Assembly: GCA_002170535.1 (NCBI GenBank)
Contig: NHDW01000004.1
Coordinates: forward strand, 395,673 to 459,672
DNA: 64,000 nt
Direction of reading: 5' to 3'
DNA from: Methylococcaceae bacterium TMED69
Lineage (GTDB): Bacteria > Pseudomonadota > Gammaproteobacteria > Ga0077536
The notes beneath the pieces are model-generated. The model did not search any database. It had not been told where the DNA came from and saw nothing but the letters and a program-made list of their open reading frames with translations. A program made the position numbers and the translations under genes. Positions 22,254 to 60,665 of this stretch are shown here, one piece after another. Each line of letters begins with the position of its first letter. Within the stretch, counting starts at the first letter, position 1.

Positions 22254-22274
22254 AAGTTTTATACAGAAAAGACT

Positions 22275-39925: not shown

Positions 39926-40017
39926 GGAGAGGTGGCCGAGCGGCTGAAGGCGCTCCCCTGCTAAGGGAGTATGCGGTTTATCCCGTATCGAGGGTTCGAA
40001 TCCCTCTCTCTCCGCCA
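39926..40017 (+). tRNA. serV: tRNA-Ser (anticodon GCU), long variable arm, encoded CCA
   Basis: I folded it by hand. The acceptor GGAGAGG pairs with TCTCTCC, the anticodon loop is CT-GCT-AA, the T arm is GAGGG-TTCGAAT-CCCTC, the discriminator is G and the CCA is encoded. It follows alaS/lysC, as serV does in other gammaproteobacteria. Confidence 0.93.
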
Positions 40018-40157
40018 ATAAAAAAAGATTCTCTTTTGTTTGATATTGGGAAAATGGGTGTGGAAGACAGATTAAAAAAATACAGACAGCGAGTTGAATT
40101 ACAACAAGCGGAATTGACATGTGTTCAATCCCGTGCGGCAACCGTGGAGCGGGTTTA

Positions 40158-41225
40158 ATGACCATTTTAGTTACTGGTGGTGCGGGTTTTATCGGTTCCA
40201 ATTTTGTTATCGACTGGCTAGCCGGAAGCGAGGAGCCAGTCATTAATCTGGATCTATTAACCTACGCCGGCAATTTAATAAATTTTGCGGCTCTTAAAAA
40301 TGATGATCGACATACCTTTGTGAATGGTGATATCGGTGATTCATCTCTAACTTTCCAGTTGCTTCAGCAGCATAATCCGCGTGCAGTAATTAATTTTGCA
40401 GCTGAGTCACATGTAGATCGCTCCATTCATGGTCCGGAAGATTTCATGCAGACCAACATTATTGGCACCTTTCGTTTATTGGAGTCCGTCCGAGGGTATT
40501 GGGGCGATCTGCCAGATGCTGAAAAGGCCAACTTTCGTTTCTTGCATGTATCTACAGACGAAGTGTATGGTTCGCTGGATGCCGATGCCCCTGCCTTTGT
40601 AGAAACTAACCGTTATGAACCTAACAGTCCTTACAGTGCCAGTAAAGCCGCGTCAGATCATATTGTTCGCGCCTATCATCACACCTATCGGCTGCCAGTA
40701 TTAACGACCAATTGTTCGAATAATTACGGGCCTTTTCAGTTTCCCGAAAAATTAATTCCGTTGATAATTCATAATGCTTTGGCTCATAAACCTCTGCCAA
40801 TCTACGGGGATGGCCTACAAATTCGAGATTGGCTTTATGTGGGTGACCACTGCAGTGCAATCCGAGCTGTATTGGCGAATGGTACCGTTGGCGAAGTTTA
40901 TAACATCGGTGGGCTAAATGAGATGACTAATATTGAGATAGTAAACAGACTTTGTGACATTCTTGATAAACTTCGGCCCATTTCTTCGGATGCATCAATT
41001 TGCAGTTATTGTGAACTTATCACCCATATCAAAGACCGACCGGGACACGATCGCCGTTACGCTATTGATGCCACCAAAATTGAATCCGCAATCGGGTGGC
41101 GCCCAGCGGAAACATTCGAAACCGGTATTCGAAAAACTGTCGAATGGTATCTGGATAATCAGGAATGGGTTGAACAAATTGTTACTGGCGGTTATCGTCG
41201 TTGGATCGAGAGGCAATACGCATGA
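40158..41225 (+). CDS. rfbB: dTDP-glucose 4,6-dehydratase
   Basis: The ATG at 40158 has a GGAG 8 nt upstream. It carries VTGGAGFIGSNF, YSASKAASDH (YxxxK) and the characteristic C-terminus. Confidence 0.96.
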   Translation: MTILVTGGAGFIGSNFVIDWLAGSEEPVINLDLLTYAGNLINFAALKNDDRHTFVNGDIGDSSLTFQLLQQHNPRAVINFAAESHVDRSIHGPEDFMQTNIIGTFRLLESVRGYWGDLPDAEKANFRFLHVSTDEVYGSLDADAPAFVETNRYEPNSPYSASKAASDHIVRAYHHTYRLPVLTTNCSNNYGPFQFPEKLIPLIIHNALAHKPLPIYGDGLQIRDWLYVGDHCSAIRAVLANGTVGEVYNIGGLNEMTNIEIVNRLCDILDKLRPISSDASICSYCELITHIKDRPGHDRRYAIDATKIESAIGWRPAETFETGIRKTVEWYLDNQEWVEQIVTGGYRRWIERQYA

Positions 41226-42121
41226 AGTTATTGCTTCTCGGTGCAAACGGGCAGCTGGGACAAGAGCTCCGCCGAGCACTTCCAGAAGTTGGCGAAGTTA
41301 AAGCTTGTGATCGGTACGAAGTCGACCTAACCGACACCCAATCCGTTCTTTTGGCTCTTGAAACATTTAATCCGGATATCGTTATCAATGCTGCGGCTTA
41401 TACTGCCGTTGACAAAGCTGAAACAAATTGCATTCAGGCATTTAGTGTAAACGCTGATGCAGTAAGGTTCTTGGCTAATGAAGTGGAGAAGAGAGGTATT
41501 TGGCTTATTCACTACTCTACTGATTATATTTTTGATGGACGAAAAGACGACGCCTATAGAGAAACAGATCCAACAAATCCGGTAAACGTTTATGGAGAAT
41601 CAAAACTTGCCGGGGAACAGGCCGTTATTGCGAAAGGTTCTAAATACCTTATTTTTCGTACTTCATGGGTAATTGGTAAAGATGGGAACAATTTTGCAAA
41701 AACAATCTTAAAACTAGCTAGCGGCCACGACACCCTAAATGTTATCAATGACCAGATTGGGGTGCCTACATCCCCAGCTCTAATTTCTAAAGTAACCGTA
41801 AGTGCAATCAATGCAATTAAAAATGGCGACGCATGGCTGGTCGGTATTTACCACTTAGCCCCCAAAGGAAAAACGACCTGGTTTGGTGTGGCAGAAGTGC
41901 TACTAGATATTGCGACCAATTCGAATATAGAGCTTTCAACAAGAACAACTCAGATAAAGGCAACCATAACAGCGGAGTATCCAACTGCTGCAAAGCGGCC
42001 ATTAAATTCATGTTTAAACACAGACAAATTGGCCGAATACCTTTCATTTGAATTACCACACTGGAAAGATGATTTTTTTGTTACCGCGAAATCGATCATC
42101 AAGGAATTTAAAGCAGTATGA
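41222..42121 (+). CDS. rfbD: dTDP-4-dehydrorhamnose reductase
   Basis: [16 protein letters not shown]..., with an ATGA overlap on rfb[10 protein letters not shown] is the YxxxK motif. Confidence 0.94.
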
Positions 42122-43008
42122 AACGAAAAGGTATTATCTTGGCTGGTGGATCTGGTACACGGCTTTACCCGGCCACAAAGGTCGTATCAAAACAGTTATT
42201 GCCTGTTTTCGATAAGCCAATGATCTATTACCCCTTAAGCACCCTCATGCTGGCAGATGTGCGTGAAATTTTGATTATTTCGACACCAAAGGACACGCCG
42301 CGTTTTGAAGAGCTTTTAGCTGATGGTAGTCAATGGGGATTGAAAATAGATTATGCGCAACAACCATCGCCCGATGGCTTAGCCCAGTCGTTAATAATTG
42401 GCGAAGAGTTTCTGGATGGGGCCCCTTCTATCCTGATTCTCGGTGACAACATTTTTTACGGCAACTCGCTACACGAAAAACTGGCATCGGCTAATCAGCG
42501 TCTGAGTGGCGCCACTATTTTTGCCTATCGTGTGCATGACCCTGAACGTTATGGCGTTGCTGAGTTTGATAAAAATGGGAAAGTTATAAGTTTGGAAGAG
42601 AAGCCAGCTGAACCCAACTCTAATTATGCGGTCACCGGTCTTTATTTTTATGATGAGCATGCACCGAAATATGCGAATCAAATTAGACCTTCTCATCGCG
42701 GTGAGTTAGAGATTACTGATCTTAATAAGATTTATTTGGAAAAAAGCCAGCTTTCAGTAGAGCGAATGAATAGAGGTTACGCGTGGCTAGATACTGGCAC
42801 TCATGAAAGCCTGATTGAAGCACACCAGTTTGTTCAAACAATAGAGCATCGTCAAGGCTTAAAAGTCGCCTGCCTAGAAGAGATAGCCTTCAGGCAGAAG
42901 TGGATAGATCAGCGTCAGTTAGAACTGTTAGCCCAACCTTTACTCAAGAATGGATATGGTAAATATTTACTCCAGGTTATTAGGGAATATGAGAATGAAA
43001 GCGATTGA
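42118..43008 (+). CDS. rfbA: Glucose-1-phosphate thymidylyltransferase
   Basis: It begins [16 protein letters not shown], and the remainder is typical of RmlA. Confidence 0.96.
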
Positions 43009-43543
43009 CACCAAAATTCCTGATGTGAAAATTATTGAACCGATGGTTTTTGAAGATGACCGTGGTTTCTTTTTTGAAAGTTTTAATCACAAAGAATTCG
43101 AAAAAGCTGTCGGAAAATCTGTCCAGTTCGTGCAAGACAATCACTCCAAGTCGACCAAGGGGGTATTACGCGGATTGCACTATCAGCTACCGCCACATGC
43201 GCAAGGTAAACTTATCCGTGTGGTACAGGGTGAAGTCTTTGACGTGGCAGTGGATATTCGCAAATCATCGCCTACCTTTGGTAAGTGGGTGGGAGAGCCA
43301 TTATCTGCCGCCAGTAAAAAACAATTCTGGATACCTGAAGGCTTTGCGCACGGTTTTATCACACTTTCTGAGTCAGCCGAGTTTTTGTACAAGACTTCGG
43401 ACTACTATGCTTCAAATTCAGAACGGTCTATTCGTTGGGATGATCCCAAAATAGCTATCGATTGGCCATTCGATATTGAGCCAATACTTTCATCTAAGGA
43501 CCTTAGAGCGGTTGATTTAAAAATCGCTGAGGTATTCGAATGA
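42995..43543 (+). CDS. rfbC: dTDP-4-dehydrorhamnose 3,5-epimerase
   Basis: [36 protein letters not shown] is a cupin-type RmlC. I chose the start at 42995. Confidence 0.94.
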
Positions 43544-44370
43544 ATCCTCACAGAACCTACTCGACCTCGCTTCTGGCAATTGCGCGTAGCATATGGCAAA
43601 ACCGCTCACTAACTGTCCAGATGATCAAGCGCGATATAATAAGTAGCTATAAAGGTTCGTTCATGGGACTGTTTTGGTCTTTTATTAATCCTATTCTAAT
43701 GCTTGCAGTATATACTTTCGTATTTACGGTCGTGTTCAAAGCGCGTTGGGGCGTGGGAGGAGATGAAAGCATGACAGATTTCGCGGTTGTGTTGTTTGTC
43801 GGTTTAATCATTCATTCAATATTTGCCGAAATACTTAATCGTGCACCCGGCCTAATTTTAGGTAATGTAAACTACGTAAAGAAGGTGATTTTTCCTTTAG
43901 AAATACTACCCATCATTGCATTGGGTGGAGCACTTTTCCGTGGCCTGGTTAGCCTTGTGGTTCTTTTAACGGTTTTTGTGCTGCTTAACGGATTTATTCA
44001 CTGGACCGCTATATTCGTACCTCTTGTGATTCTTCCCTTTGTTTTGGTAATGCTAGGCTTTGCTTGGCTGCTTGCGTCGATCGGGGTCTATCTTCGGGAT
44101 ATTGAACAAGCAACCGGTTTTTTTGCAACCATGATGTTGTTTCTAGCACCTGTTTTCTATCCTGTTTCAATCTTACCTGAGAAGTATCAAATATTAATTT
44201 TGGCTAATCCGTTAACCTTTATTATTGAGCAAGCAAGACAGGTTATGTTATTTGGAAAGCTTCCAAATTTACAGGGTTTGGCAGTTTATAGTGTTGTGAG
44301 TCTGGGGGTGGCGTGGTTTGGCTATTGGTGGTTCCAGAAAACGCGAAAAGGGTTTGCTGATGTCGTCTGA
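43540..44370 (+). CDS. wzm: Polysaccharide ABC-2 exporter permease
   Basis: 276-aa ABC-2 membrane protein. It is followed by the overlapping ATPase and lies inside a glycan locus. Confidence 0.88.
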   Translation: MNPHRTYSTSLLAIARSIWQNRSLTVQMIKRDIISSYKGSFMGLFWSFINPILMLAVYTFVFTVVFKARWGVGGDESMTDFAVVLFVGLIIHSIFAEILNRAPGLILGNVNYVKKVIFPLEILPIIALGGALFRGLVSLVVLLTVFVLLNGFIHWTAIFVPLVILPFVLVMLGFAWLLASIGVYLRDIEQATGFFATMMLFLAPVFYPVSILPEKYQILILANPLTFIIEQARQVMLFGKLPNLQGLAVYSVVSLGVAWFGYWWFQKTRKGFADVV

Positions 44371-45670
44371 TATTGCTATTCGGGTCGAAGGCGTCTCTAA
44401 GAGTTTTAAAATCTATAACAGGCCTCAAGACAGATTAAAACAGAGCCTTTTGCGATGGCGTCAGTACTATAGTGAATTTAAAGCGCTTGATGAAATTTCT
44501 TTCAGTGTTAATAAAGGTCAGACAATCGGAATTATCGGTAGGAATGGGTCTGGAAAGTCTACTTTGCTGGAGGTGATTTGCGGCACCTTGACGCCGACTA
44601 CTGGTAAGGTTGAGGTGAAGGGACGATTAGCTGCGTTGCTTGAGTTAGGTGCGGGATTTAATCCCGAGTTTACTGGCAAAGAGAACATCTACCTTAATGC
44701 CGCGGTCCTCGGCCTCACAGGAGAGGAAATTCGAGACAAGTACGAACAAATCACCGCTTTCGCTGAAATAGGCGACTTTATTGACCAGCCGGTAAAGACT
44801 TATTCCAGTGGTATGTATGTTCGTCTCGCATTTGCTATCCAAGCTAATGTAGACCCAGAGATTCTAATTGTTGATGAGGCACTTTCCGTTGGTGATGCAT
44901 ACTTTGTTCATAAATGTATGTTGCGTTTTAATCAGCTTCGAGAAAGAGGAACGACCATCTTATTTGTTTCACATGACTCAACGGCAGTCAAAACCTTGTG
45001 TGATCACGCGGTGTGGTTGGAGGATGGAAGGATTATGTACTCAGGTGACGCTAGCGTAGCTGTGGACCGCTACCTTGCAGCAGTGAAGAAACAACCCATA
45101 GTAATGGATTTTGCTTCCGATAAAGAACAGAACGGCGGACAAACTGAGGAACAGGTTTCAAGAGGTGGTGCATTGGGAGAAACGATTATTCCAAATATTG
45201 ACCGACGTCTTGGTGACCAGCGATGTGAGTTTATTGGTTTAGGGATGTTCGACGAGAATATGCAGAGGCTACTAACCGTAGAAAATGATTCATTGTTAAT
45301 TCTGCGGCTTACTATCCGCAATAATTCCCTTGAAGAAGGCCGACAGTTGGTACTTGGTTACTGTTTGCGAAATCACCGAGGTGTGGATCTGGCAAGCAAC
45401 AATTCTACGGTCGAAGATACGAATATCACGGCCCCTGCTGTGGGCGACCAACGCACTGTCCGTATTTATATACAACTGCCAGTCCTGCATCCTGGCTCTT
45501 ATTCATTCAGTATCACGATGGGATATAAGCTTGAAAACGGGGTTATGCAGGACTCCGATAGTATCACCAATGCCGTGGTATTTGAGATGACCTCTAGACG
45601 CACTGTTCATGTCCTGATGTCATTGGACTCTAGCTTCGAGGTAGAGGAGGACGAAAGGACATTACTATGA
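44360..45670 (+). CDS. wzt: Polysaccharide ABC exporter ATP-binding protein with a C-terminal extension (Wzt_C-like)
   Basis: It has Walker A GRNGSGKST, the signature YSSGMYVRLAF and Walker B ILIVDEAL. About 170 further beta-rich residues follow the NBD (roughly 45152-45667). Confidence 0.9.
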   Translation: MSSDIAIRVEGVSKSFKIYNRPQDRLKQSLLRWRQYYSEFKALDEISFSVNKGQTIGIIGRNGSGKSTLLEVICGTLTPTTGKVEVKGRLAALLELGAGFNPEFTGKENIYLNAAVLGLTGEEIRDKYEQITAFAEIGDFIDQPVKTYSSGMYVRLAFAIQANVDPEILIVDEALSVGDAYFVHKCMLRFNQLRERGTTILFVSHDSTAVKTLCDHAVWLEDGRIMYSGDASVAVDRYLAAVKKQPIVMDFASDKEQNGGQTEEQVSRGGALGETIIPNIDRRLGDQRCEFIGLGMFDENMQRLLTVENDSLLILRLTIRNNSLEEGRQLVLGYCLRNHRGVDLASNNSTVEDTNITAPAVGDQRTVRIYIQLPVLHPGSYSFSITMGYKLENGVMQDSDSITNAVVFEMTSRRTVHVLMSLDSSFEVEEDERTLL

Positions 45671-45697
45671 AAGAGACGTTAAAAAAGAAGGTTGTCT

Positions 45698-46792
45698 ATG
45701 ACGTATGACGGAGTCAGGGTCGTCCGTTATGGTCCAGACGAAACCCGTGTAGGAACACCGTTTAATGAACAACCTGATGGTTCCTGTGCATTGTGGTTTG
45801 AGGTTGAGGGGCGAGACGATTGCCCTTTAGCTGTTGAATTTGACGGAGTGTTTTTGAAATCAGTTCGCTTAGGTTCTATGTTAACGGCATTACTACCGCA
45901 AAGTCTAATTGCAGTGCCGAGGGAGCTTAATATTCGGATATTCGATGAGACCAGGCCGGATAACCCTGTGTTACTTCACTTTTATGTGCTCGACCCAAGA
46001 GGTAAGAAGATTCGGGGTAAAGTTACAAATCCCGTTACTAAGGTCCCTATTCCCGGATTTTTCATAATTGGCCCACCCCGTAGTGGTACCACCTCTATAT
46101 ATTGGCGACTGCAGGCGCACCCTAGTGTTTATATGTCGCGAAATAAGGAACCATATTACTTCGACCCGCGAGCAGAGGGAGTGTTAAATGATGCTGTAAT
46201 AGATAGAGACGAATACTTGTCGCTGTTTCGGTTCGCGCCATTTCAGTCCAAGGTGGTCGGTGAAGCGTCCACAACTTATGCGAGCTCGCCTGAAGCTCTT
46301 CGCCGAATCCAAATATTTAACCCGCAGGCCAAGGCTTTGCTAATTTTAAGAAATCCGCTTACAGCCAGCGTATCTTTATACCTACAGCATCGGAAGGGTG
46401 GTCTGCATGAGCATGCGTCGAGTTTTCAGCAGGCTTGGAACGAATGTGAGAATGCACAAAACCGGCCCTTTATTTCTAATTATCGTAGTTTATATAAAAT
46501 TGGGGATCAGTTAGCTAGTGCCTCCAGGATTTTTGGAGAGCGCTTACATGTTATGTTATTCGATGATCTAGTGAACGACGGAACTTCGGTATATGCCGGC
46601 TTACTTCGCTTTTTAGGTTTACAAGTGGATTCTTTAGAGCAACTTGAGAAAACAAATAGCTCACAATTGGAAAATATTGAATCCATAGTTTCGCCTGAGC
46701 TACTCGATGAGATGACTGATTATTTTCTGCCGCAAATTCGATTAGTTTCCGAATTTATCGGCCGCGACTTGGGTCATTGGATTGCCAGATGA
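45698..46792 (+). CDS. Sulfotransferase with an N-terminal extra domain of about 125 aa
   Basis: The PAPS 5'-phosphosulfate loop IIGPPRSGTTS lies near 46070-46096, and a 3'-phosphate motif LILRNPLTASVS follows. The N-terminal beta-rich domain has no recognised family. Confidence 0.8.
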   Translation: MTYDGVRVVRYGPDETRVGTPFNEQPDGSCALWFEVEGRDDCPLAVEFDGVFLKSVRLGSMLTALLPQSLIAVPRELNIRIFDETRPDNPVLLHFYVLDPRGKKIRGKVTNPVTKVPIPGFFIIGPPRSGTTSIYWRLQAHPSVYMSRNKEPYYFDPRAEGVLNDAVIDRDEYLSLFRFAPFQSKVVGEASTTYASSPEALRRIQIFNPQAKALLILRNPLTASVSLYLQHRKGGLHEHASSFQQAWNECENAQNRPFISNYRSLYKIGDQLASASRIFGERLHVMLFDDLVNDGTSVYAGLLRFLGLQVDSLEQLEKTNSSQLENIESIVSPELLDEMTDYFLPQIRLVSEFIGRDLGHWIAR

Positions 46793-46852
46793 TGCTTTAC
46801 GCTTTAATATTGTCTAGGCTGTGAAATTTTCCATCTTTGGGGCTCTTAAGAT

Positions 46853-47731
46853 ATGAAATCTATTTTAATTCTTGGAGGTTGTGGTTATATTGGTAGCGAG
46901 CTCTTTCTTATCCTCGACGGCCTTGGCTACTCAGTTTCAACGATCGATTTGGAACTAAATGGGAACTATGTAAACCCCAACAATGTTCGCCAAGATGTGT
47001 CCGATATCACGGCGAAGGATTTGGAGGAGTACGACGTTATTATTAACTTTGCGGCTCATTCGAGCGTAGCCATGGCAAACAACCGAAAGCGCGAGGCTCT
47101 TGAAGATGGTATTGTCAACTTTTTTGATCTGCTGCAAAAAGTAGGGAGTAAGAAGTTTATTTATGCAAGTTCATCGAGCGTTTACAATGGTCTGACTCAG
47201 ACTGAGGCGAATGAGGAATCAGATTTTTTTAACGTTAGCAACCTATATGATTTGACAAAGTTATTTGCTGATAAGCTGGCAAAACTCTATTCGGATCGTT
47301 TCTACGCGTTGCGTTTCGGAACTGTTTGTGGACATTCACCCAACCTGCGAACGGATGTCATGATAAATAAGATGGTTCATTCGGCAATAAATGAAGGAAA
47401 GATCGTCATATATAACAAGAATATCAATCGGCCGATTCTGGGTATTAGGGACTTGTGTAATGCAGTTCGTTGTCTTATCGAAAGGGATGGCGAACCGGGT
47501 TTTTATAATTTAGCGAGCCTAAATGCCACCATTATGGAAATTGGTAATTCGGTTGCTGAGATCATGGATGTGCCCCTTGTGGATATGGGTGAGACTGATA
47601 CATATGATTTTAAGATAAGTTCGGACAAGTTTTGCAGGACCTATGATTTTGAGTTCAGAGAAGACATCCGGAGTATTGTCGAGGATATTAAACAGAATTG
47701 GGACGCAAAGCAGCAGGGGGTCAGGATTTGA
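46853..47731 (+). CDS. NAD-dependent sugar epimerase/dehydratase (SDR family)
   Basis: It has a Rossmann motif LGGCGYIGSEL and the catalytic YDLTK (YxxxK). Confidence 0.8.
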   Translation: MKSILILGGCGYIGSELFLILDGLGYSVSTIDLELNGNYVNPNNVRQDVSDITAKDLEEYDVIINFAAHSSVAMANNRKREALEDGIVNFFDLLQKVGSKKFIYASSSSVYNGLTQTEANEESDFFNVSNLYDLTKLFADKLAKLYSDRFYALRFGTVCGHSPNLRTDVMINKMVHSAINEGKIVIYNKNINRPILGIRDLCNAVRCLIERDGEPGFYNLASLNATIMEIGNSVAEIMDVPLVDMGETDTYDFKISSDKFCRTYDFEFREDIRSIVEDIKQNWDAKQQGVRI

Positions 47732-48969
47732 TGAGATACCAGTCTAATGGTAAATGTTTTTGTTGTGGTAGTTCAGACCTTCTAGTCTATTTCGACCTGG
47801 GTATCACTCCGTTAGCAAACAGTTATCCACTTGAACCAGGAGCAACGGAACAATATCCGTTACGAGTCGCTGTTTGTAAGAATTGTTTTCACAGTCAGCT
47901 ATGTGAATCGGTAAATCCAGATATGCTGTACCGTGAGTACCTTTATGTGAGCGGTACAAGTAATACGCTTAGGGAATATTTTCGTTGGTTCGTTGGTTTT
48001 GTAGAGGATCATATTGACCGTGTAGAGCATAATCGTTCTGTGCTGGAAATCGCATGCAATGACGGCTCTTTGTTGGAAGTATTTAGAGACAATGGCTGGA
48101 GCGTGAAAGGGATTGATCCGGCATTGAATTTGCGGGCAATTACTGAGTCCAAAGAGCTTGATGTGCTTGCGGATTACTGGAATGACGAGACTGCTGCTAA
48201 AATTAATTGTTTATACGATGTGATTGTTGCTCAAAATGTTCTTGCCCACTTGCCTTATCCGAAACGGTTTTTAGAGCTGTGTTGTTTCGTGCTTAAAGAA
48301 GATGGAATTATCTATATCCAGACATCTCAGGCAGATATGGTTGATAACTTGGAGTTCGATACCATTTATCATGAGCACCACTCATTTTTTTCCGCAAACT
48401 CTATGCAGATTCTCGCCGAACAAGCCGGGTTGAAGGTTATAGATGTTAGCAAAGTGCCGGTTCACGGAATGAGTTATCTATTTTCCTTAGGCAGGGCGGA
48501 CGAGCACGGCGCTTCTTTATACTCTCTCATTGAGGAAGAGCGGCAGAATGGTCGATACGATTTGAGTACTTACACGACTTTTTCTCAGAGTGCAGACAAA
48601 TATGTGAACGACTTCCTTAATGTAATTAAGGCCCATCGTGAAGAGGGGCGAAAAATCATTGGCTATGGAGCTGCAGCCAAAGGTAGTACGTTTTCCAGCT
48701 ATAGTAAATTAAAAGTAGATTATATTGTTGATGACAACACGCTCAAATGGGAGCACTATACTCCAGATGGGACGACAAAAATCTTTGGTTCGGCTTCCCT
48801 TGCCCGCGAGGTCGGTGCAGTGACCGTTGTTATTTTTGCCTGGAATTTCTTTGAAGAAATCGCCGCCAGAATAGATCAGATTATAGGTGCTGAGTCTGGG
48901 GAACGAGATTTTCAATATATTACCTACTTCCCCGAATTGAAGCTAACCTCCTGTAATAAATATGTTTAA
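47731..48969 (+). CDS. Zn-ribbon SAM methyltransferase of the NDP-hexose C-methyltransferase (TylCIII-like) architecture
   Basis: The N-terminus carries CFCCGS...CKNCFHS (four Cys). The SAM motif is VLEIACNDG, and there is a C-terminal Rossmann-like domain (IIGYGAAAKG). The start overlaps the upstream stop (TGATG). Confidence 0.75.
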   Translation: MRYQSNGKCFCCGSSDLLVYFDLGITPLANSYPLEPGATEQYPLRVAVCKNCFHSQLCESVNPDMLYREYLYVSGTSNTLREYFRWFVGFVEDHIDRVEHNRSVLEIACNDGSLLEVFRDNGWSVKGIDPALNLRAITESKELDVLADYWNDETAAKINCLYDVIVAQNVLAHLPYPKRFLELCCFVLKEDGIIYIQTSQADMVDNLEFDTIYHEHHSFFSANSMQILAEQAGLKVIDVSKVPVHGMSYLFSLGRADEHGASLYSLIEEERQNGRYDLSTYTTFSQSADKYVNDFLNVIKAHREEGRKIIGYGAAAKGSTFSSYSKLKVDYIVDDNTLKWEHYTPDGTTKIFGSASLAREVGAVTVVIFAWNFFEEIAARIDQIIGAESGERDFQYITYFPELKLTSCNKYV

Positions 48970-49037
48970 TCAGGATAAGAAAAATTCGTCGATAAAAAAA
49001 TCTGAAGTATGTGAGTCTATGGGATGCTAGATTGAGG

Positions 49038-50792
49038 ATGAAGATATTTGATTGTTTTACGTTCTATAATGAACTGGATCTTTTAGAGATTCGACTACAT
49101 CAGTTGTGGGATAAGGTAGATAGATTTGTAATTGTTGAGGGTGACCGAACTTATGCCGGTAAAGAAAAGGAATCGCAGTACCTCGAAAATCAAGAACGTT
49201 TTGCGTGGGCTTCATCTAAGATAATACACGTGATCGCCAGCCTGCAAGCAGAACCGAAGACTCGTTGGGTAAACGAGGCTATACAGAGAGACGCTATCAT
49301 GGAGGGTCTCGATTCGGCAACATCGGAAGATGTTATTTGCATTAGCTGCGTTGATGAAATTTATTCCAATTCAATTTTTTCAGATCTTAGAAATAATCTT
49401 ATTGAATTGCCTGTTCTAGTGGACTTAAAGTTATTTTATTTCTATCTAAATGGTCAATGCACGGGATCCGCAAGTGTATTTCCTTGTCCCGTGATTACTC
49501 GACGTGCGATGCTCGGCAGTTCAGTGCACGAATATTTTGATGACCGTTTCAACTATGAACGTTATTCGTTTGGTGGTTGGCATTTTTCTTTTTTAGGTGG
49601 GGCGCATTGTATTAAAGAGAAAATTGAGGCCTATTCACACCAGGAATATGACAATGATTTCTATAAAAGCGAGGAGAGGTTGGAGCAAGTAATTGCAAAT
49701 GGGGGTGACATTTTTGAACGAAAGGGGGTTGGCGAAGTTGAGTATGTTCAGTTAGACGATTCATTTCCTGATTACGTTTTACAGAATCTTGGTAAATATG
49801 CCCATTTGATCAAGCCGGTCGGACCTGGGTCCTCAGCAATATTCTACGAACATGTCGAGCGGGTTCGAAATTTTGTGCTATCGCAACAAGAACGTAGACA
49901 ACAAATGAGCGGGGAATGTGTCCCTTCCCGTTACTGGATGGACTTTGCACTCAATTTTCGCTATGTATACTCTCTTTCTCTTTCTGAAATCTTACGTATT
50001 CGTTTTCATACCTACCATCTTACTAGCGATTCCTATCTTTCCTATTATTTTGCAGGCGAGGACTACAAAGAGTTGCTTACTAGGGGTTATTGCTATTTCA
50101 TAGACAAAGGAGGGTTGACTCCTTACGATGAAGGCGAGAACGGAATTGGAGTTAAAACCCAATATGGCATAGTCAGCCACGATCTGCTGCGTTATCTCGG
50201 TGCACTCTGTGACATTAAAGAATGTGGTTTTTTTGACGTGACATCGCAATTGGTAGTTATGGAAATTGGTGGAGGATATGGCGGTTTGGCGCGTGCCCAC
50301 TTGATGCAGAACAACCAGCTTAGTTACGTGATTTGCGATCTTGAGGAGACATTGTTTTTTTCCTCGATTTATTTGGCACTCCATTTTGGAGTCGAGCGGG
50401 TGCATCTGGTTAATGAGCCGCTAATTCAAGCTGATCTTCAACCGGGGCATGTATACATTGTTGCTCAATCTCGAATAGAACTGTTGGCTGATATTGAATT
50501 AGACTATGTAATTAATCAGCAGTCGCTTCAAGAAATGACTCGCGATCAGGTAATTCGTTATTTGCAATGGATCCAGCACCATAGTAAGGGCTTTTACTCT
50601 TGTAATCTCAACGATCATGGCTGTATCGCAAATGAGAAAAGTATCGTAACTGATCTAATCGTTGAGCTTCAACATGAGTTTGGCGAGCCATTCTGGACCG
50701 CAGATACGCCTCAAGCAGAATACCGGTTTGGAGATAACCATCTACCGAGATTCGCTTATTACTGTAATAAATTCAGAGAATTAACCGAATGA
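49038..50792 (+). CDS. Bifunctional-looking protein: GT17-like glycosyltransferase domain fused to a SAM-methyltransferase-like domain
   Basis: The N-terminus MKIFDCFTFYNELDLLEIRLHQLWDKVDRFVIVEGDRTYAGKEK is the typical bacterial Glyco_transf_17 start. The C-terminal half has the motif VMEIGGGYGGLA. Confidence 0.7.
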   Translation: MKIFDCFTFYNELDLLEIRLHQLWDKVDRFVIVEGDRTYAGKEKESQYLENQERFAWASSKIIHVIASLQAEPKTRWVNEAIQRDAIMEGLDSATSEDVICISCVDEIYSNSIFSDLRNNLIELPVLVDLKLFYFYLNGQCTGSASVFPCPVITRRAMLGSSVHEYFDDRFNYERYSFGGWHFSFLGGAHCIKEKIEAYSHQEYDNDFYKSEERLEQVIANGGDIFERKGVGEVEYVQLDDSFPDYVLQNLGKYAHLIKPVGPGSSAIFYEHVERVRNFVLSQQERRQQMSGECVPSRYWMDFALNFRYVYSLSLSEILRIRFHTYHLTSDSYLSYYFAGEDYKELLTRGYCYFIDKGGLTPYDEGENGIGVKTQYGIVSHDLLRYLGALCDIKECGFFDVTSQLVVMEIGGGYGGLARAHLMQNNQLSYVICDLEETLFFSSIYLALHFGVERVHLVNEPLIQADLQPGHVYIVAQSRIELLADIELDYVINQQSLQEMTRDQVIRYLQWIQHHSKGFYSCNLNDHGCIANEKSIVTDLIVELQHEFGEPFWTADTPQAEYRFGDNHLPRFAYYCNKFRELTE

Positions 50793-50831: not shown

Positions 50832-53800
50832 ATGGAATTTAGAGAGTCAAAGTTGGATATTAATACGCCCACACAAATTATTTTCGATCAATACAGCCGC
50901 TACCTTGCCTGCAGCAAGCTACTTCAAAATGCTGGTCTGAATAAGGGTGCAAGCATGTTAGATGTCGGCAGTGGGCCCGAATGTCTATTTGGCTCCTTTT
51001 TGCCAGATATACAGATTACTTACCTTGACCCGCTAATTTCAGTCGAAGATGGACAACATATCAAAGGCGATATCTTTTCTGAACATCTAAATGATCTATC
51101 TTTTTCTGCTGTCGTCGCGGTAGATGTTCTTGAACACGTTCCTCCCGACAGGCGAAACGTATTTTTAAAGCGAGTTTCTGAACTTTCCTCTGATGTAATC
51201 GTCCTCGGGTTTCCAAATTCAGATACGCTTGACGCATCGCAGCTAGACCTCGCGTTAGAGCAACAATATCGAAATATTTATGGATCTGACTACTACTGGC
51301 TGCAGGAACATCACGAATATGGCCTACCATCGTTGAAAGATACACAAGCACAACTAGAACATCAAGGTTGGTATTGCCATTCGGTGGGACACGGTCATAC
51401 TCCTTGGCTACGCGAATTGTTAGGCTTCGTGATTTGTGCTTGGGACAACCCACTTTATAAAAATTTGATAGTATCGATTAGTGAACGATTCAACGAAATC
51501 CTCGCGCAATATGATTTTTCAGAACCCTCTTACAGGCAGTTTATCATCGCGACACGCCAACGTTCTGTTACCCGATTTCAGCCGTCTGATACGGCACAAA
51601 CTTTTGAAGAAGCGAATCGGTTATTTGATGAGTTGATGCAGTATGCACGAACAGAATTCTATAAGTTAGCATTACGCCCAATGGATGAAAATCCACCAAT
51701 TTATATGCAGTTATTAAAAGAGCGTACTCACGAGAGAGATCGCGCGCGAGAGGAAAGGGATAAAGCGCTAGTAGATCGAGCTTTATCAGAAGCGCGAGTT
51801 CAACAAGCATATAACAGTACCTCTTGGAGGCTTACTCGGCCTTTGCGGGTTGGTGCTCGTCTGGTGCGACATGGTCTTACCAAACAGGATCGACAAAAAC
51901 TTATTCAGGCGTTACGCAATCAATATCATAGCTTACCAATACCGAGGCTTATTAAAGGACTTGTAAGTAGAGTCTACCACCAGCAACTTTTGCGTAAATT
52001 TTTTGTAGGTGTTCATCGTAATTTAAGGTTTGAAAAAACATTTCAGTTGCCTGATGAAAAGCTAAAAAGTCAGCAATACGGCAAGCCGGATTATATAATC
52101 TGGGGCGTTATAGATTGGCATTTCCGACATCAGCGTCCTCAACAAATAGCATTGGCGCTGGCTGCAACGGGTCGGCGAGTGTTTTATATTTCTCCTTTAT
52201 TGGTTGATGATCAGTGTGCCGGTTTTGAAGTTGAGGCTTTGGACACATCGAAGCAGCTTTTCCAGATAAAGTTATTTGCTAATAATGCTCCCTCAATTTA
52301 CATGGACGAGCCAAATCTTGAAACCGCTGCTCAGCTCAAACAAAGCCTTGGTGAGGTTTTGAATTGGACAGAAAGCAAACAAATTAATTCACTTGTTGAT
52401 CATCCCTTCTGGCTTGATATCGCTGTTGTGGTGCCTAACAGTCGTCTCATTTATGACTGCATGGATCATCATGCGGGCTTTGGCAGTATCTCAGATTCAT
52501 TGTTACAGCTGGAAAAACGGTTGCTTGCTGAAGCGGAACTAGCCATTTGTACATCCTCGTGGTTGAAAGAGTCTGTCTCTCCCCATGCCAAACAGACGAT
52601 ACTGATTCGTAATGCTGCTGACTATGTGCATTTTTCTTACGCATATCCATATCGCGATCCAAAGGGTCGACGTATCATTGGGTACTATGGGGCGATTGCC
52701 GAGTGGTTTGATCTGGATCTTATTGAGGCTGTTGCGATACAGCACCCAGATTGTTGTGTACTGTTGGTTGGGTCAGATACTGTTGATGCTAGCTCAAGGC
52801 TGTCAAAGTTTAAAAATATTACCTTTTTGGGCGAGGTGCCCTACGAGGAATTACCCTATTATTTACACGGATTCGATGTATGTCTGCTGCCATTCAAAGT
52901 TACCCCATTAACTCTTGCAACTAACCCAGTCAAGATTTATGAATACATGTGTGCTGGTAAGCCGGTGGTGGCCGTTGACTTGCCTGAAATGGCGCAATTT
53001 GAGGGCTTGGTTTATTCAGTTACCGGTAAAGACGCTTTTTTAGACTCTTTAAAAAATGTTTTGAGTCAACCGGAACCCGAAGACCTAATCTGGAAGCGCA
53101 GGGCATTTGCACAGCACCAAACCTGGCGAGATCGTACTGAAACATTGATTAAAAATGCTGAGTCAAGCAACCGGGACCCCAGAGTGAGTGTTATTGTTGT
53201 AACCTACAATAACCTGAACCTAACCAAAGAATGTCTTTCAAGTTTGGAACTTCATAGTCAGTACCAAAATCTTGAAATTATTGTTGTGGATAATGCGTCA
53301 AAAGATGGAACTCTAGCTTACCTCAATAGTTGGGTTATGCGTAACAAAAAAAATAGCCTTATCTTGAATAGTGAAAATCGAGGCTTTGCGGCTGCAAACA
53401 ATCAAGGATTGGAGGTCGCAACAGGCGACTATCTGGTACTACTTAATAACGATACATATGTAACTCTTGGTTGGATTCGAACTCTAATTAGACATATCGA
53501 AACTGATAAGAACATCGGCCTTATTGGTCCTGTTACAAATAATATTGGCAATGAGGCTAGAGTTAATATTGACTATGGAAATATGGATGAAATGCAGGTC
53601 AAGTCATTAGCTTATACACGTAGGCACATCGGTCAAACATATCCATTGAGAACAGCCGCGTTTTTCTGCGTAATGATGCCGAGGTCAACCTACGAAAGAG
53701 TAGGACCATTGGATGAAGCCTTTGGTCGAGGCTTCTTTGAGGATGATGACTACTGCCGCCGAGTAGAGCAACTCGGTCTGCGAATTGTCTGCGCCGAAGA

Positions 53801-54776
53801 TGTATTTATTCATCACCATCTATCAGCGTCGTTTGATCAATTAAAGCAACATGAGCGCCAAAAGTTATTTGAAAAAAATAAAGCAATCTATGAAGCCAAG
53901 TGGGGAGAATGGGTGCCACATGGGTATCGAGATCCGGAACCAGTTAATCAAGATGAAATGTTTAGTCTTCCTGCAGTATTTCAGAGTCAAAAATATTTTG
54001 CAGGGACTTGTATTGCTTGTGGTAAGTCTGCTCGTTTTTTTTATCAAGATGTATCGCTCTGGCGGGAGTCATTGATTTGCGAACATTGCTACACAACGAG
54101 TCGTTATCGGTCGATTGCTCGAGGGCTTTTGCTCGCAATAAATGAACTGACGGGCATTGAGGCATCCTCGCTATCGATACTTCCTCGTGCTCACGATAAG
54201 CGACTAAGCGTCTACGATACGCAACCTCCCTTTTACTTTGGCTCTTGCTCTTACCCGTTACCTGAACTATTAAAAACAACTAAATGGATTGATGTCAAAT
54301 TATCACAATACCGTTCCGATAAAAAGCTTGGAAAGAGATTGTCAAAAGGCGTAACAAATCAAAATTTAGAATGCCTCACTTTCCCCGATGCTTCTCTAGA
54401 TATTATAATTACCAGTGATGTTATGGAACATGTCCGCCTCGATGATCGTGCACATCGTGAGATTTATCGAGTTTTAAAACCAGGAGGCATATATCTCTTC
54501 ACCGTTCCCCATGACCGGTCATGGGAAAATACCGTTACTCGTGTGCAGATTACCGATCCAGGTGATCCTGCTAAAGATATCCACCTTCTCGAACCAGAAT
54601 ATCATGGGGATACTAATAGTCCTGAGGGCACCGGTGTGCTCGCATATCGTGCTTATGGAAGAGACCTTGAAGTTTTTTTGGCTGAGATTGGCTTTGAAGT
54701 TATTTATGAACGAGAAGATTATAAGTCGTTGGGAATAATGAATACCGAATTATATTTTTGTCGTAAGCAAGTGTAA
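50832..54776 (+). CDS. 1314-aa multidomain glycan-assembly enzyme: MTase / charged helical linker / GT-B (GT4-like) / GT2 / Zn-ribbon + MTase
   Basis: MTase 1 is marked by MLDVGSGPE...VDVLEHV. The linker is ERTHERDRAREERDKALVDRALSEARV followed by SWRLTRPLR (51822-51848). The GT-B part starts near 52089 and contains NPVKIYEYMCAGKPVV. The GT2 part starts near 53181 (VSVIVVTYNN...VVDNASKDGT...LLNNDT...EDDDY). The CIACG...CEHC ribbon starts at 54009, and MTase 2 is marked by ITSDVMEHV...LKPGGIYLF. Confidence 0.85.
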   Translation: MEFRESKLDINTPTQIIFDQYSRYLACSKLLQNAGLNKGASMLDVGSGPECLFGSFLPDIQITYLDPLISVEDGQHIKGDIFSEHLNDLSFSAVVAVDVLEHVPPDRRNVFLKRVSELSSDVIVLGFPNSDTLDASQLDLALEQQYRNIYGSDYYWLQEHHEYGLPSLKDTQAQLEHQGWYCHSVGHGHTPWLRELLGFVICAWDNPLYKNLIVSISERFNEILAQYDFSEPSYRQFIIATRQRSVTRFQPSDTAQTFEEANRLFDELMQYARTEFYKLALRPMDENPPIYMQLLKERTHERDRAREERDKALVDRALSEARVQQAYNSTSWRLTRPLRVGARLVRHGLTKQDRQKLIQALRNQYHSLPIPRLIKGLVSRVYHQQLLRKFFVGVHRNLRFEKTFQLPDEKLKSQQYGKPDYIIWGVIDWHFRHQRPQQIALALAATGRRVFYISPLLVDDQCAGFEVEALDTSKQLFQIKLFANNAPSIYMDEPNLETAAQLKQSLGEVLNWTESKQINSLVDHPFWLDIAVVVPNSRLIYDCMDHHAGFGSISDSLLQLEKRLLAEAELAICTSSWLKESVSPHAKQTILIRNAADYVHFSYAYPYRDPKGRRIIGYYGAIAEWFDLDLIEAVAIQHPDCCVLLVGSDTVDASSRLSKFKNITFLGEVPYEELPYYLHGFDVCLLPFKVTPLTLATNPVKIYEYMCAGKPVVAVDLPEMAQFEGLVYSVTGKDAFLDSLKNVLSQPEPEDLIWKRRAFAQHQTWRDRTETLIKNAESSNRDPRVSVIVVTYNNLNLTKECLSSLELHSQYQNLEIIVVDNASKDGTLAYLNSWVMRNKKNSLILNSENRGFAAANNQGLEVATGDYLVLLNNDTYVTLGWIRTLIRHIETDKNIGLIGPVTNNIGNEARVNIDYGNMDEMQVKSLAYTRRHIGQTYPLRTAAFFCVMMPRSTYERVGPLDEAFGRGFFEDDDYCRRVEQLGLRIVCAEDVFIHHHLSASFDQLKQHERQKLFEKNKAIYEAKWGEWVPHGYRDPEPVNQDEMFSLPAVFQSQKYFAGTCIACGKSARFFYQDVSLWRESLICEHCYTTSRYRSIARGLLLAINELTGIEASSLSILPRAHDKRLSVYDTQPPFYFGSCSYPLPELLKTTKWIDVKLSQYRSDKKLGKRLSKGVTNQNLECLTFPDASLDIIITSDVMEHVRLDDRAHREIYRVLKPGGIYLFTVPHDRSWENTVTRVQITDPGDPAKDIHLLEPEYHGDTNSPEGTGVLAYRAYGRDLEVFLAEIGFEVIYEREDYKSLGIMNTELYFCRKQV

Positions 54777-57262: not shown

Positions 57263-58278
57263 CTAAAAACTTAACTGATAATTTATTTCAGGATGTTCAA
57301 GTAGCTGTTGTTATTCCTTGCTTTAAAGTAACTAAGCAAATTGTTAATGTTATCTCTGCTATTCCTTCCGGCGTTTGGCGCATTTATGTCATCGATGATG
57401 CATGTCCGGATGGCTCGGGTAAAATGGTAAACAAAAATGTGACTGACCCAAGAGCGAAAGTTATATTCCATAGCAAAAATTTAGGCGTTGGTGGCGCTGT
57501 GATTACCGGGTATAAGGCTGCTATTTTCGACGGAGCGGATGTAATCGTAAAAGTTGATGGTGATGGTCAGATGGATCCGTTGCTTATCCCCGATTTTATT
57601 TCTCCTATTATTATAGGTGAAGCTGATTATACAAAAGGGAATCGGTTTTTTGATCTCGAGGAGATTCGTATTATGCCAAAATTGCGTTTATTTGGTAACG
57701 CGGTGCTGTCATTGATGGCAAAGTTATCAACTGGCTATTGGAATTTATTCGACCCTACTAATGGCTTTACCGCAATTCATGCCGACGTTGCCAAGCAACT
57801 GCCGTTTGCAAAAATTAGTGAGCGCTACTTTTTCGAAACAGACATTCTTTTTCGTCTCAACACATTACGGGCAGTCGTCATTGATGTTCCAATGAGTGCG
57901 AAATATGGAGAAGAAGTAAGCAATATTAAGATATCGAATATCATAGGTGAATTCCTATTTAAACATATCCGGAATTTTTTTAAGCGTATTTTTTATAACT
58001 ATTATCTGCGTGACTTGTCGTTAGCATCAATTGAGTTACCGTTAGGTGTTTTGTTGTTCCTATTTGGCGCAGGTTTTGGAGGTTATAGTTGGTATGACTC
58101 GGCACGCGTCAACGAGGTGACGCCTGCAGGCACTGTTATGTTAGCGGCACTTCCTATACTAATGGGATTGCAACTAATATTGGCATTTTTAGGTAACGAC
58201 ATTGCTTCGATACCGCGCAGGCCCAGACAGAAAATGTTCCGGCAACTTAGCTCGTACAACAAAGGTAAAAATAAGTGA
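57259..58278 (+). CDS. GT2 polyprenyl-phosphate glycosyltransferase (GtrB/ArnC/DPM1-like) with C-terminal TM helices
   Basis: It carries VAVVIPCFKV, VIDDACPDGSG and VKVDGDGQMDP, and has two C-terminal hydrophobic helices. Confidence 0.85.
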   Translation: MTKNLTDNLFQDVQVAVVIPCFKVTKQIVNVISAIPSGVWRIYVIDDACPDGSGKMVNKNVTDPRAKVIFHSKNLGVGGAVITGYKAAIFDGADVIVKVDGDGQMDPLLIPDFISPIIIGEADYTKGNRFFDLEEIRIMPKLRLFGNAVLSLMAKLSTGYWNLFDPTNGFTAIHADVAKQLPFAKISERYFFETDILFRLNTLRAVVIDVPMSAKYGEEVSNIKISNIIGEFLFKHIRNFFKRIFYNYYLRDLSLASIELPLGVLLFLFGAGFGGYSWYDSARVNEVTPAGTVMLAALPILMGLQLILAFLGNDIASIPRRPRQKMFRQLSSYNKGKNK

Positions 58279-58350: not shown

Positions 58351-58761
58351 ATGAACCAGAAAAAAATTAAACCCATAGAATTAGCCTCTTATATAGGCAT
58401 TCAGGGCTTAGCGTTTGCTTTGGACAACATTATTTTCTTTTCCGTCCTTGCCTTAGGTTTGACCGGTTCACTCGTGGTTGCGTTGGGTGTTGCCCGCACC
58501 ATAAGTTCGATATTCGCGTTTCTTATGCACGCGCAGTTTACTTTTCCGCAGAAAAAAAAGCGAGGATTAAAGGCTCAACTCACAAGCTTTTATGCAATGA
58601 TTTTAGTTCATTTTTTTTTTACGGCACTATGTTTACAACTCCTGACCCAAATCGGTTGGAGCCCCCTATTTGCAAAGATCATAATCGACATACTGGGTGC
58701 TCTTTTGGTATATTTAGCTATGAAATTCGTAACCTTCCTGCCTGCGGACTGGGCATCATAA
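58351..58761 (+). CDS. GtrA-family small membrane protein (candidate polyprenyl-P-sugar flippase)
   Basis: 136 aa with four predicted TM helices and a GtrA-like motif FAFLMHAQFTF. It lies next to the GtrB-like GT2. Confidence 0.75.
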   Translation: MNQKKIKPIELASYIGIQGLAFALDNIIFFSVLALGLTGSLVVALGVARTISSIFAFLMHAQFTFPQKKKRGLKAQLTSFYAMILVHFFFTALCLQLLTQIGWSPLFAKIIIDILGALLVYLAMKFVTFLPADWAS

Positions 58762-59565: not shown

Positions 59566-59566
59566 C

Positions 59567-60652: not shown

Positions 60653-60665
60653 TAAGGAGTAGTAG

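Follow-up and report, generated by a model that had tools for sequence, protein, structure and literature searches.

The locus analysed here raises the question of whether a sulfate group can be the end-tag that licenses a bacterial glycan for export, with a sulfotransferase (ST) as its writer and the carbohydrate-binding domain (CBD) of the neighbouring Wzt as its reader. In O-antigen, S-layer-glycan and related pathways that depend on an ABC transporter, CBD-gated export is the quality-control step. To our knowledge only three export cap chemistries are known (methyl, methyl-phosphate and Kdo), and all of them were described in a few enteric or model organisms. An earlier note on the same DNA, made from the sequence alone, knew of no described export-licensing sulfate cap, and a literature search likewise found no description of one. 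The window, i.e. the whole stretch of 64,000 nucleotides that was analysed, comes from an uncultured marine bacterium, and the features found in it are listed in Table 1.

Table 1. Features of the glycan cluster, with positions in the window and the basis of each assignment
Feature	Position	Strand	Basis
tRNA-Ser(GCU)	39926-40017	+	ARAGORN; Rfam tRNA 55.5 bits
rmlB, rmlD, rmlA, rmlC	40119-43543	+	ORFs and translations; Pfam families of the same genes in L005/L006
Recombination block (wzm, wzt and ST)	43500-46860		DNA identity to L005, dS
wzm, ABC-2 permease	43540-44370	+	Pfam ABC2_membrane, E 3e-22
wzt, ABC ATPase with C-terminal carbohydrate-binding domain	44360-45670	+	Pfam, phmmer, AlphaFold2, Foldseek
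Wzt carbohydrate-binding domain, residues 282-430	45203-45649	+	Pfam Wzt_C; AlphaFold2 and Foldseek; invariant columns
Two-domain ST	45698-46792	+	ORFs, Pfam, PDB matches, homologue starts
Ig-like (IPT/TIG-like) beta-sandwich of ST	45716-45991	+	AlphaFold2, Foldseek, sequence relatives
PAPS-type sulfotransferase catalytic domain	46046-46789	+	Pfam, PDB matches, motifs
5'-PSB loop GPPRSGTTS	46070-46096	+	Translation
3'-PB motif RNPLTASVS	46349-46375	+	Translation
NAD-dependent epimerase/reductase (292 aa) and sugar C-methyltransferase	46853-48969	+	Pfam
GT17-like glycosyltransferase fused to NanM-type sugar O-methyltransferase	49011-50792	+	Pfam, TIGR04371
1314-aa protein: methyltransferase, charged helical linker, GT4, GT2, methyltransferase	50832-54776	+	Pfam

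The wzt product (436 aa) carries ABC_tran (Pfam, residues 43-175, E 9.5e-23) and then Wzt_C (residues 282-416, E 8e-12; score 45.8 bits, cut-off 30.4) in one chain, and the 3' end of wzm, which lies upstream, overlaps the wzt start. Its nucleotide-binding domain (NBD) is closest to Wzt of Aquifex aeolicus (E 1.3e-68). In PDB sequences, phmmer with the full-length protein matched the NBD only and not the CBD, and a profile of the CBD alone found nothing, so the identity of the CBD was settled by fold search. The AlphaFold2 (AF2) model of residues 255-436 is an all-beta sandwich (pLDDT 81.6), and its best 17 PDB matches by Foldseek are all Wzt CBDs (probability 1.0), with target-normalised TM-scores of 0.69-0.75 for isolated CBD chains and identities of only 14-19%. 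The matches include 5hno and 5hnp (Klebsiella pneumoniae O12), 2r5o (E. coli O9a), 8dky, 6o14 and 8dl0 (A. aeolicus), and 8dne, 7k2t and 8dku. By sequence and predicted fold the tail clearly belongs to the Wzt carbohydrate-binding domains (PF14524). The earlier note had described a beta-rich tail of about 170 residues and had set the prediction of its structure as a test; the beta-rich character and the similarity to solved carbohydrate-binding domains are confirmed, while the length becomes about 190 residues, of which the CBD takes about 150. Wzt CBDs bind the terminal cap in every characterised system (PMC9445017, PMC11231755). The CBD belongs to a clade marked by the invariant motifs IPNIDRRLGDQ (starting just 5' of the range given in Table 1), LRNxRGxDLASNNS, LPxLHPGSY, DxITNAxVF and HVLM, and a profile search found none of these motifs in PDB sequences.

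The ST gene, which encodes 364 aa, is the next gene after wzt, as the earlier note had stated; it lies on the same strand, and the gap between the wzt stop and the ST start is 27 nt. The start is probably the ATG at 45698, which is used in the homologues P0001 and P0003 and is preceded by the ribosome-binding site aagaagg; a TTG at 45692 is the alternative. The PAPS-binding motifs that had been noticed beside wzt are now located within a region (residues 121-320) that scores above the Pfam cut-offs for both Sulfotransfer_3 (E 1.2e-11, 45.8 bits against 27) and Sulfotransfer_1 (E 2.4e-10, 40.7 bits against 22). The closest sequence relatives in PDB are the bacterial ST 3rnl (E 5.6e-20) and the heparan-sulfate (HS) 3-O- and N-sulfotransferases (1e-7 to 1e-5), which have the same PAPS-binding motifs and neither an Ig-like N-domain nor a link to ABC export. 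Both motifs align with the PAPS loops of 3rnl and 1vkj and do not vary among six homologues with identities of 47-88%. A further invariant motif, KEPxxFD (E153), is aligned with EVHFFD of HS 3-OST-1, the glutamate of which we take to be the catalytic base. No signal peptide was found in the translation. Judged from its sequence, the product is an intact PAPS-type sulfotransferase (PF00685/PF13469). No genes for PAPS synthesis (cysC/cysDN) are present among the ORFs of the window, which covers 64 kb of a contig of 459,910 bp.

Residues 9-100 of the ST are modelled by AF2 as a beta-sandwich of about 95 residues (pLDDT 84). The earlier description of a beta-rich N-terminal domain of about 125 aa thus holds for the fold, which is Ig-like in the model, and is shortened in length to about 100 aa, followed by a linker. 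Foldseek matched it best to Ig domains of titin and NCAM and the IPT domain of RelB (TM about 0.5-0.6), which are generic Ig domains and give no functional clue. This domain and its five closest relatives have no Pfam match, including TIG (PF01833), even at E<=10; among distant relatives, P0098 and 6-7 of a set of 80 match TIG or TIG_SUH. The domain carries the conserved motif GPxxTxxGxxFNxQPDGSSALW and has 748 relatives at E<=1e-3, and its family is typically joined to sulfatase-family transferases, acyltransferase-3, glycosyltransferases (GTs) and methyltransferases (MTs).

The earlier note had asked for the co-occurrence of this Wzt_C subtype with sulfotransferases, and a strong pairing was found across most of the CBD clade. 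Clustering at 90% identity divides the clade, which was drawn from MAGs and metagenomes, into 24 clusters, and an ST gene lies directly 3' of wzt in 20 of the 23 evaluable lineages (19 clusters and the frameshifted L031). The ST is of the Ig-like plus ST type in six lineages (type A), a SULT-like ST of 264-282 aa in 11 (type B), and a Sulfotransfer_3 ST of 276-278 aa in three (type C). Types A and B reach only E 0.055 in BLASTP, are missed by each other's HMMs and differ in their nearest PDB relatives; type C gives marginal matches to the type A model in the PAPS motifs only (E 4.5e-5 and 2.9e-4) and no match to the type B model. Since the three types hardly recognise one another, the association is with the activity and not with one inherited gene, and the clade has recruited three different ST families to the slot after wzt. 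L001, L003 and L012 carry the ST as part of an MT-Ig-ST fusion. The MT fused to ST in P0005 and P0006 was compared with the MT domains of the 1314-aa protein, and the similarity was generic to SAM motifs (36% over 55 aa) and so uninformative. One lineage of the clade was reckoned as having no ST; no ST gene was found within 3.6-4 kb in L026 and L027 or within 0.9 kb in L022. We also looked for CBD residues, basic or other, diagnostic for ST linkage, and none separated the ST-linked members from L026 and L027: R62 and R83 are conserved in all members of both kinds, and R83 is apparently common to Aquifex in a weak, non-significant alignment. The CBD positions therefore give no sequence evidence for a sulfate pocket.

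A comparison with the near-identical strain represented by L005 bears on the linkage of these genes. A block of exactly wzm, wzt and ST has 78-89% DNA identity, while both flanks have 97-100%; dS is 0.48-0.95 in the block and 0-0.09 in the flanks, and dN/dS is 0.09-0.15. The three genes have been swapped as one divergent cassette between the two strains, a pattern suggesting that exporter and ST move together as one co-adapted unit. Since the ST motifs are invariant and dN/dS of the ST is 0.15, the ST is under selection.

The cassette is embedded in a higher-GC glycan cluster, with the tRNA-Ser(GCU) gene at its upstream edge as located by the GC shift, and wzm, wzt and ST lie in one operon-like array on the + strand. 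The rml genes provide dTDP-rhamnose/6-deoxyhexose precursors. The epimerase/reductase and the C-methyltransferase (Methyltransf_13/23/14), which are kept 3' of ST in L005, L006 and L007, probably make a branched 6-deoxy sugar. The GT17-like/O-methyltransferase fusion (GT17, E 2.8e-28; TIGR04371, E 9e-24) is a candidate capping-sugar module, and in L001 a long coiled coil is joined to GT17. The 1314-aa protein, homologues of which carry long coiled coils, is a candidate terminator-ruler-polymerase.

Our preferred reading is that the cluster would assemble a polymer of rhamnose type, carried by undecaprenyl phosphate, on the cytoplasmic side of the membrane, and that the polymer would leave the cell interior through Wzm/Wzt after its cap is read by the Wzt C-terminal domain. 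The cytoplasmic ST would use PAPS to sulfate the terminal residue at the non-reducing end, which may be a capping sugar from the GT17-like enzyme and may be O-methylated too, and the Ig-like domain would tether the ST to the end of the glycan or to the assembly complex. The epitope bound by the CBD clade would be the sulfated end-group, either by itself or with methyl, and sulfation would couple chain completion to export, like the phosphate added by the WbdD kinase in E. coli O9a. The pairing in about 20 unrelated environmental bacteria suggests that sulfate is a new export-licensing end-tag; we infer the glycan as acceptor, the terminal position of the sulfate, its binding by the CBD and an effect on termination. 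We see an even chance that sulfate is part of the terminal epitope read by this clade. We propose more tentatively, at somewhat short of even chances, that a terminal sulfate ester written by the ST and read by the clade CBD is a fourth class of export cap, with wzm-wzt-ST as its reader-writer cassette. A methyl-sulfate diester, comparable to the methyl-phosphate of O9a, was dropped on chemical grounds: dialkyl sulfates are alkylating agents, which makes such a cap implausible.

One of the closest parallels to the proposed arrangement is E. coli O9a/K. pneumoniae O3, where the Wzm/Wzt exporter and the CBD fold (2r5o) are the same as here and the gene of the modifying enzyme is likewise directly 3' of wzt; the identity to that CBD is only about 15% and the cap chemistry here is putative. 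The gene concerned is wbdD, which encodes the terminator and in E. coli O8/O9a lies immediately 3' of wzm-wzt. WbdD adds an anionic group from a nucleotide donor, as predicted for the ST, and is an MT-kinase, just as ST relatives here are fused to an MT; it differs in donor (ATP and not PAPS), in fold (kinase and not sulfotransferase) and in having a coiled coil, which the ST lacks. In Klebsiella O7, the terminator ORF6 is an MT-kinase-Ig-like 'CBM'-coiled coil-rhamnosyltransferase protein, and an Ig-like domain in a terminal-modification enzyme has so far been reported as unique to it (PMC11231755). The ST is a candidate counterpart: the O7 polymer is rhamnose-based, as predicted here, and ORF6 likewise combines an MT with an anion-adding enzyme, whereas here the Ig-like domain precedes a sulfotransferase and the ST is a polypeptide separate from the coiled-coil/GT protein. 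By analogy, the MT-Ig-ST fusions would follow the logic of the MT-kinase terminators WbdD and ORF6. The A. aeolicus WzmWzt (8dky, 8dku) recognises a 3-O-methyl-Man/Rha cap (PMC9445017), with a highly similar NBD (E 1e-68), the same CBD fold, a rhamnose-rich polymer and MTs in the cluster, but with no ST partner reported. In the K. pneumoniae O12/R. terrigena WbbB system, the CBD of which (5hno) is the best structural match of our model, a multidomain polymerase carries the terminator, resembling the candidate terminator-ruler-polymerase here, and a beta-Kdo cap is added by a GT99 enzyme with no sulfation.

Several observations weigh against a sulfate cap, among them the ST-less clade members, the lack of a CBD residue diagnostic for ST linkage, the absence of PAPS-synthesis genes from the window and the A. 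salmonicida case described below. Another is the position of the terminator. In all characterised systems it resides in the protein bearing the coiled-coil ruler (PMC11231755), whereas the ST has no coiled coil, its 364 aa being filled by the Ig-like domain, the linker and the ST domain, and the terminator position of the coiled-coil protein is taken by an MT domain. Since the cluster has four MT domains, one of them N-terminal on the coiled-coil polymerase, a methyl cap is a simple alternative, which the earlier note had already raised: this MT or the GT17-fused O-methyltransferase would make the cap read by the CBD, and the ST would sulfate internal residues or side branches in the cytoplasm, its place after wzt being inherited operon order. 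The MT-linker-GT4-GT2-MT layout fits the terminator-ruler-polymerase model (PMC11231755), and the N-terminal MT is as widely kept across the clade as the ST, with 44-53% identity across groups A and B (L003, L009, L010, L011 and L013) and it occurs in loci of group C and in L026, which has no ST, as well. L026 and L027 retain the clade CBD and have an extra MT, plain methyl caps occur in A. aeolicus and E. coli O8 (PMC9445017, PMC7685785), and marine bacteria with fully sulfated polysaccharides have been described (PMC11766843, PMC11641403). Yet inherited order leaves unexplained why three non-homologous ST families occupy the same post-wzt slot, why the ST stop codon is exactly where the recombination block ends, and why terminator-like MT-Ig-ST fusions exist; we give a methyl cap with sulfate elsewhere an appreciable chance, well below even.

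It is unlikely that the ST acts on another acceptor (a nucleotide sugar, some other molecule of the envelope, or the reducing-end primer or adaptor linked to und-PP) or that it is dispensable or cryptic. A frameshifted ST in the clade member L024 and a truncated copy (P0087) speak for this, as does Aeromonas salmonicida A450, the only published case of an ST directly after a long wzt found in our literature search: its wb(salmo) cluster has Wzt (438 aa), ORF19 with a 'sulfotransferase domain' (216 aa) and WbbB in this order, and no sulfate was reported in the O-antigen (PMC4483657). ORF19 is shorter than the ST here, the A. salmonicida Wzt had no match to the clade CBD motifs in our genome scan, and one terminal sulfate per chain would be easily overlooked in repeat-unit NMR. 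The selection on the ST argues against dispensability, and the Ig-like family is usually joined to polymer-modifying and not to nucleotide-sugar enzymes. Finally, all clade loci were gathered through CBD motifs, including a scan of GTDB representative genomes, and many are short metagenomic contigs, so the adjacency might be a single ancestral operon seen repeatedly. We regard such a sampling or phylogenetic artefact as very improbable: differences between the CBDs of different groups reach 55-70%, both Beta- and Gammaproteobacteria occur among the hosts, which include Cellvibrionales, Gallionella and a marine MAG, the remaining gene content varies by locus, and other families have taken the place of the ST itself.

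If the sulfate-cap reading is true, it would bring both a new donor (PAPS) and a new fold of enzyme under the cap rule, and would give a first physiological role to scattered, unexplained wzt-adjacent ST genes such as that of A. salmonicida. With roughly 20 loci available, heterologous expression offers a direct test of the idea, and the wzm-wzt-ST module would be a compact tool for engineering the export of defined sulfated glycans.

A single glycan-assembly array on the plus strand spans 38.6-63.3 kb of the window, and its features are listed in the table below. The ATPase part of Wzt belongs to ABC_tran (E 1.3e-68 against Wzt of A. aeolicus), and its tail matches Pfam Wzt_C above threshold. 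Residues 255-436 were modelled with AlphaFold2 (pLDDT 81.6), and the 17 best PDB matches of the model are all solved Wzt carbohydrate-binding domains (CBDs; 5hno/5hnp, 2r5o, 8dky, 6o14, and others) with probability 1.0 and identity of 14-19%; the tail thus resembles the carbohydrate-binding domains with which the earlier note had compared it. Both PAPS motifs read in the next gene were located, and the sulfotransferase (ST) domain encoded there matches Sulfotransfer_3/_1 in Pfam, PDB 3rnl (E 5.6e-20), and heparan-sulfate 3-OST/NST enzymes. No PAPS-synthesis genes were found among the ORFs of the window. The N-terminal part of the ST, beta-rich as had been described, is without a Pfam match and is predicted to be an Ig-like sandwich (pLDDT 84), with a size of about 95 residues instead of the about 125 aa given previously.

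Features of the glycan-assembly array and of the region upstream of it
Feature	Position in window	Strand	Remarks
rpoA, gatAB, mreBCD, PBP2, rodA, guaBA, aspartokinase			Upstream housekeeping genes
GT4 gene		+	First in array
tRNA-Ser(GCU)	39926-40017		After GT4 gene, immediately upstream of rmlB
rmlB, rmlD, rmlA, rmlC		+	In that order, after tRNA-Ser(GCU) and before wzm
wzm	43540-44370	+	
wzt	44360-45670	+	
ST gene	45698-46792	+	
SDR epimerase/reductase, then sugar C-methyltransferase	46853-48969	+	292 aa; Methyltransf_13/14
GT17-like domain fused to NanM-type sugar O-methyltransferase	49011-50792	+	TIGR04371
1314-aa protein		+	Methyltransferase, charged linker, GT4, GT2, methyltransferase; after GT17-like fusion gene
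Polytopic membrane protein	54776-57262	+	828 aa
GtrB-like gene	57259-58278	+	
GtrA-like gene	58351-58761	+	
Glucose-1-phosphate cytidylyltransferase, CDP-glucose 4,6-dehydratase, further epimerase/reductase	58798-61720	+	
Second polytopic membrane protein	61717-63330	+	537 aa

The CBD profile was searched in 185,579 species genomes, the protein database, and JGI metagenomes; hits were clustered at 90% CBD identity, and the gene directly 3' of wzt was examined for each locus. The resulting CBD clade comprises 24 clusters and one frameshifted copy, and its hosts include Cellvibrionales and Gallionella. An ST directly follows wzt in 20 of the 23 evaluable lineages; the co-occurrence of this Wzt_C subtype with sulfotransferases, raised in the earlier note, is strong within the clade. 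Three types of ST occupy this slot: an Ig-like domain plus ST (type A, six clusters), an ST of 264-282 aa that, among solved structures, is closest to cytosolic SULTs (type B, 11 lineages), and a Sulfotransfer_3 protein of 276-278 aa (type C, three lineages). Searches started from type A miss type B and vice versa, both with HMMs and with BLASTP (E 0.055); for type C, the type B model gives no hit and the type A model only marginal PAPS-motif hits, at E 4.5e-5 and 2.9e-4. The presence of these different families in one slot, in varied hosts and with other genes varying from locus to locus, points to an association with sulfotransferase activity and not with one inherited gene; ST has been swapped for another family at least twice.

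On the 2.5-Mb contig Ga0255338_1000001 (loci L026 and L027), a GT2-coiled-coil gene follows wzt, no ST lies within 3.6-4 kb, and the methyltransferase (MT)-coiled-coil protein has an extra N-terminal MT; this may be a natural replacement of ST by MT. An acyltransferase-like gene follows wzt in L022, a locus with only 0.9 kb of sequence there, while L025 ends just where an Ig-like ORF begins and L028 is too short for judging this gene. In L023, wzt and the ST of type C are separated by an 87-aa ORF (4475-4735) with a motif (HHYISKNAGSSVDY) resembling the PAPS loop of Sulfotransfer_2 enzymes; this ORF may be what is left of a fourth ST type that was displaced. At loci with the type B ST (L009 6090-9410, L010 10481-13022, L011, and L013), a 560-aa carbamoyltransferase of the NodU/CmcH type comes after the short ST, in some cases together with a methyltransferase, and this is a set of decorating enzymes reminiscent of Nod-factor end-group tailoring. 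A second ST is present in L013 and in L001.

Searching among 5.8 billion proteins gave only six full-length relatives of the ST with its N-terminal domain, of which three are about 88% identical, P0004 is 50% identical, and P0005 and P0006 are 47% identical. In the last two, which are 577-581 aa long, a methyltransferase precedes the Ig-like domain and ST in one polypeptide, an arrangement that resembles the known methyltransferase-kinase terminators. Mutants in wbdD or O4 ORF7 lose ligated O-antigen and accumulate und-PP-linked polymer. The order wzm, wzt (with Wzt_C), and ST is found in every genomic context of these relatives, and the CBDs of the adjoining Wzt proteins are 48-80% identical with invariant motifs in common. 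Comparison of the window with L005, a metagenomic contig from another sample, over 40.0-56.8 kb has given 97-100% identity apart from one block with sharp bounds, which consists of wzm, wzt, and ST (window 43500-46860, L005 3510-6860) and has DNA identity of 78-89%. Mismatches are 526/3253 nt in the block versus 32/3540 nt and 119/9998 nt in the flanks, and dS is 0.95, 0.72, and 0.48 for the three genes versus 0-0.09 for flanking genes, with dN/dS of 0.09-0.15 in the block. The three genes are therefore an allelic cassette swapped as a unit by recombination between two environmental strains, and they are under purifying selection. Such exchange is as expected for a co-adapted reader-writer module, and plain adjacency could also yield it.

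The Ig-like domain belongs to a sizeable family without a Pfam model: a profile run against 1.84 billion representative proteins gave 748 relatives at E<=1e-3, and the family motif (window 45716-45991; P0089-P0253) is GPxxTxxGxxFNxQPDGSSALW. The domain is frequently tandem, in proteins of 350-390 aa. Its partners in a Pfam scan of 80 of the 748 relatives were sulfatase-family transferases, TIG, sulfotransferases, acyltransferase-3/SGNH, and glycosyltransferases, and other relatives carry methyltransferase domains. L010 has it attached to a methyltransferase and L001 to an unassigned protein, and it forms a lipoprotein in LPS regions of xanthomonads (L008). We interpret the domain as a module by which enzymes that modify envelope glycans dock onto the glycan or a complex, and the Ig-like "CBM" carried by the Klebsiella O7 terminator ORF6 (PMC11231755) is the one published parallel.

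The epimerase/reductase and C-methyltransferase pair, which lies downstream of ST also in L005, L006, and L007, suggests that the glycan contains a branched-chain (C-methyl) 6-deoxy sugar, possibly as the capping residue. The two halves of the GT17-like fusion are separate genes in L003, and the GT17-like glycosyltransferase is a candidate capping-sugar transferase because L001 has a fusion of the GT17 domain with a long coiled coil. The CDP-glucose genes constitute a second, CDP-linked deoxy-sugar pathway within the same cluster. No Pfam or NCBIfam family matches the 828-aa and 537-aa membrane proteins, and L003 and L010 also have the former, conserved downstream of the cluster; the position of the two proteins flanking the GtrB- and GtrA-like genes suggests that the exported glycan is modified or transferred in the periplasm. 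GC content rises from 0.35-0.39 to 0.42-0.45 at tRNA-Ser(GCU), where the cluster has the look of an inserted island; a spurious 109-aa minus-strand ORF overlaps the tRNA gene. A low-GC patch (0.324) with a minus-strand DegT/DnrJ-type aminotransferase is located at 22000-24200 and is followed by a TPP-dependent enzyme and an aldehyde dehydrogenase at 24991-28216. The host is an uncultured marine Pseudomonadota MAG, and the same protein clusters have members from Tara samples.

Three caps are known: methyl, methyl-phosphate, and Kdo (PMC9445017, PMC11231755). A full-text literature search turned up neither a sulfate cap nor an ST coupled to Wzt; likewise, according to the earlier note, no described system is known to use sulfate as its export-licensing cap. 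The only published wzt-ST adjacency found is that of Aeromonas salmonicida, where the authors could not explain the ST gene because the repeat-unit structure was without sulfate (PMC4483657); one terminal sulfate per chain would easily be missed in a study of this kind.

For sulfate being part of the epitope that the CBD reads, we consider the chances to be even. A methyl cap with sulfation elsewhere is a distinctly less probable reading, and it is favoured by the terminator, which is always on the coiled-coil protein in characterised systems (PMC11231755): this place is held here by an MT domain whose conservation in the clade is as wide as that of ST. Because of this and of the four MT domains in the cluster, the cap claim is restrained. 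The CBD alignment revealed no diagnostic sulfate-binding residues. The probability left over goes to an ST with other acceptors or to an artefact. The best fit to all data, short of proof, is a composite terminal epitope, in which a capping sugar would be both O-methylated and sulfated; the GT17-like enzyme (coiled-coil-bearing in L001) may be what adds this sugar. The comparative evidence links sulfation to the exporter more tightly than adjacency in a single genome could.
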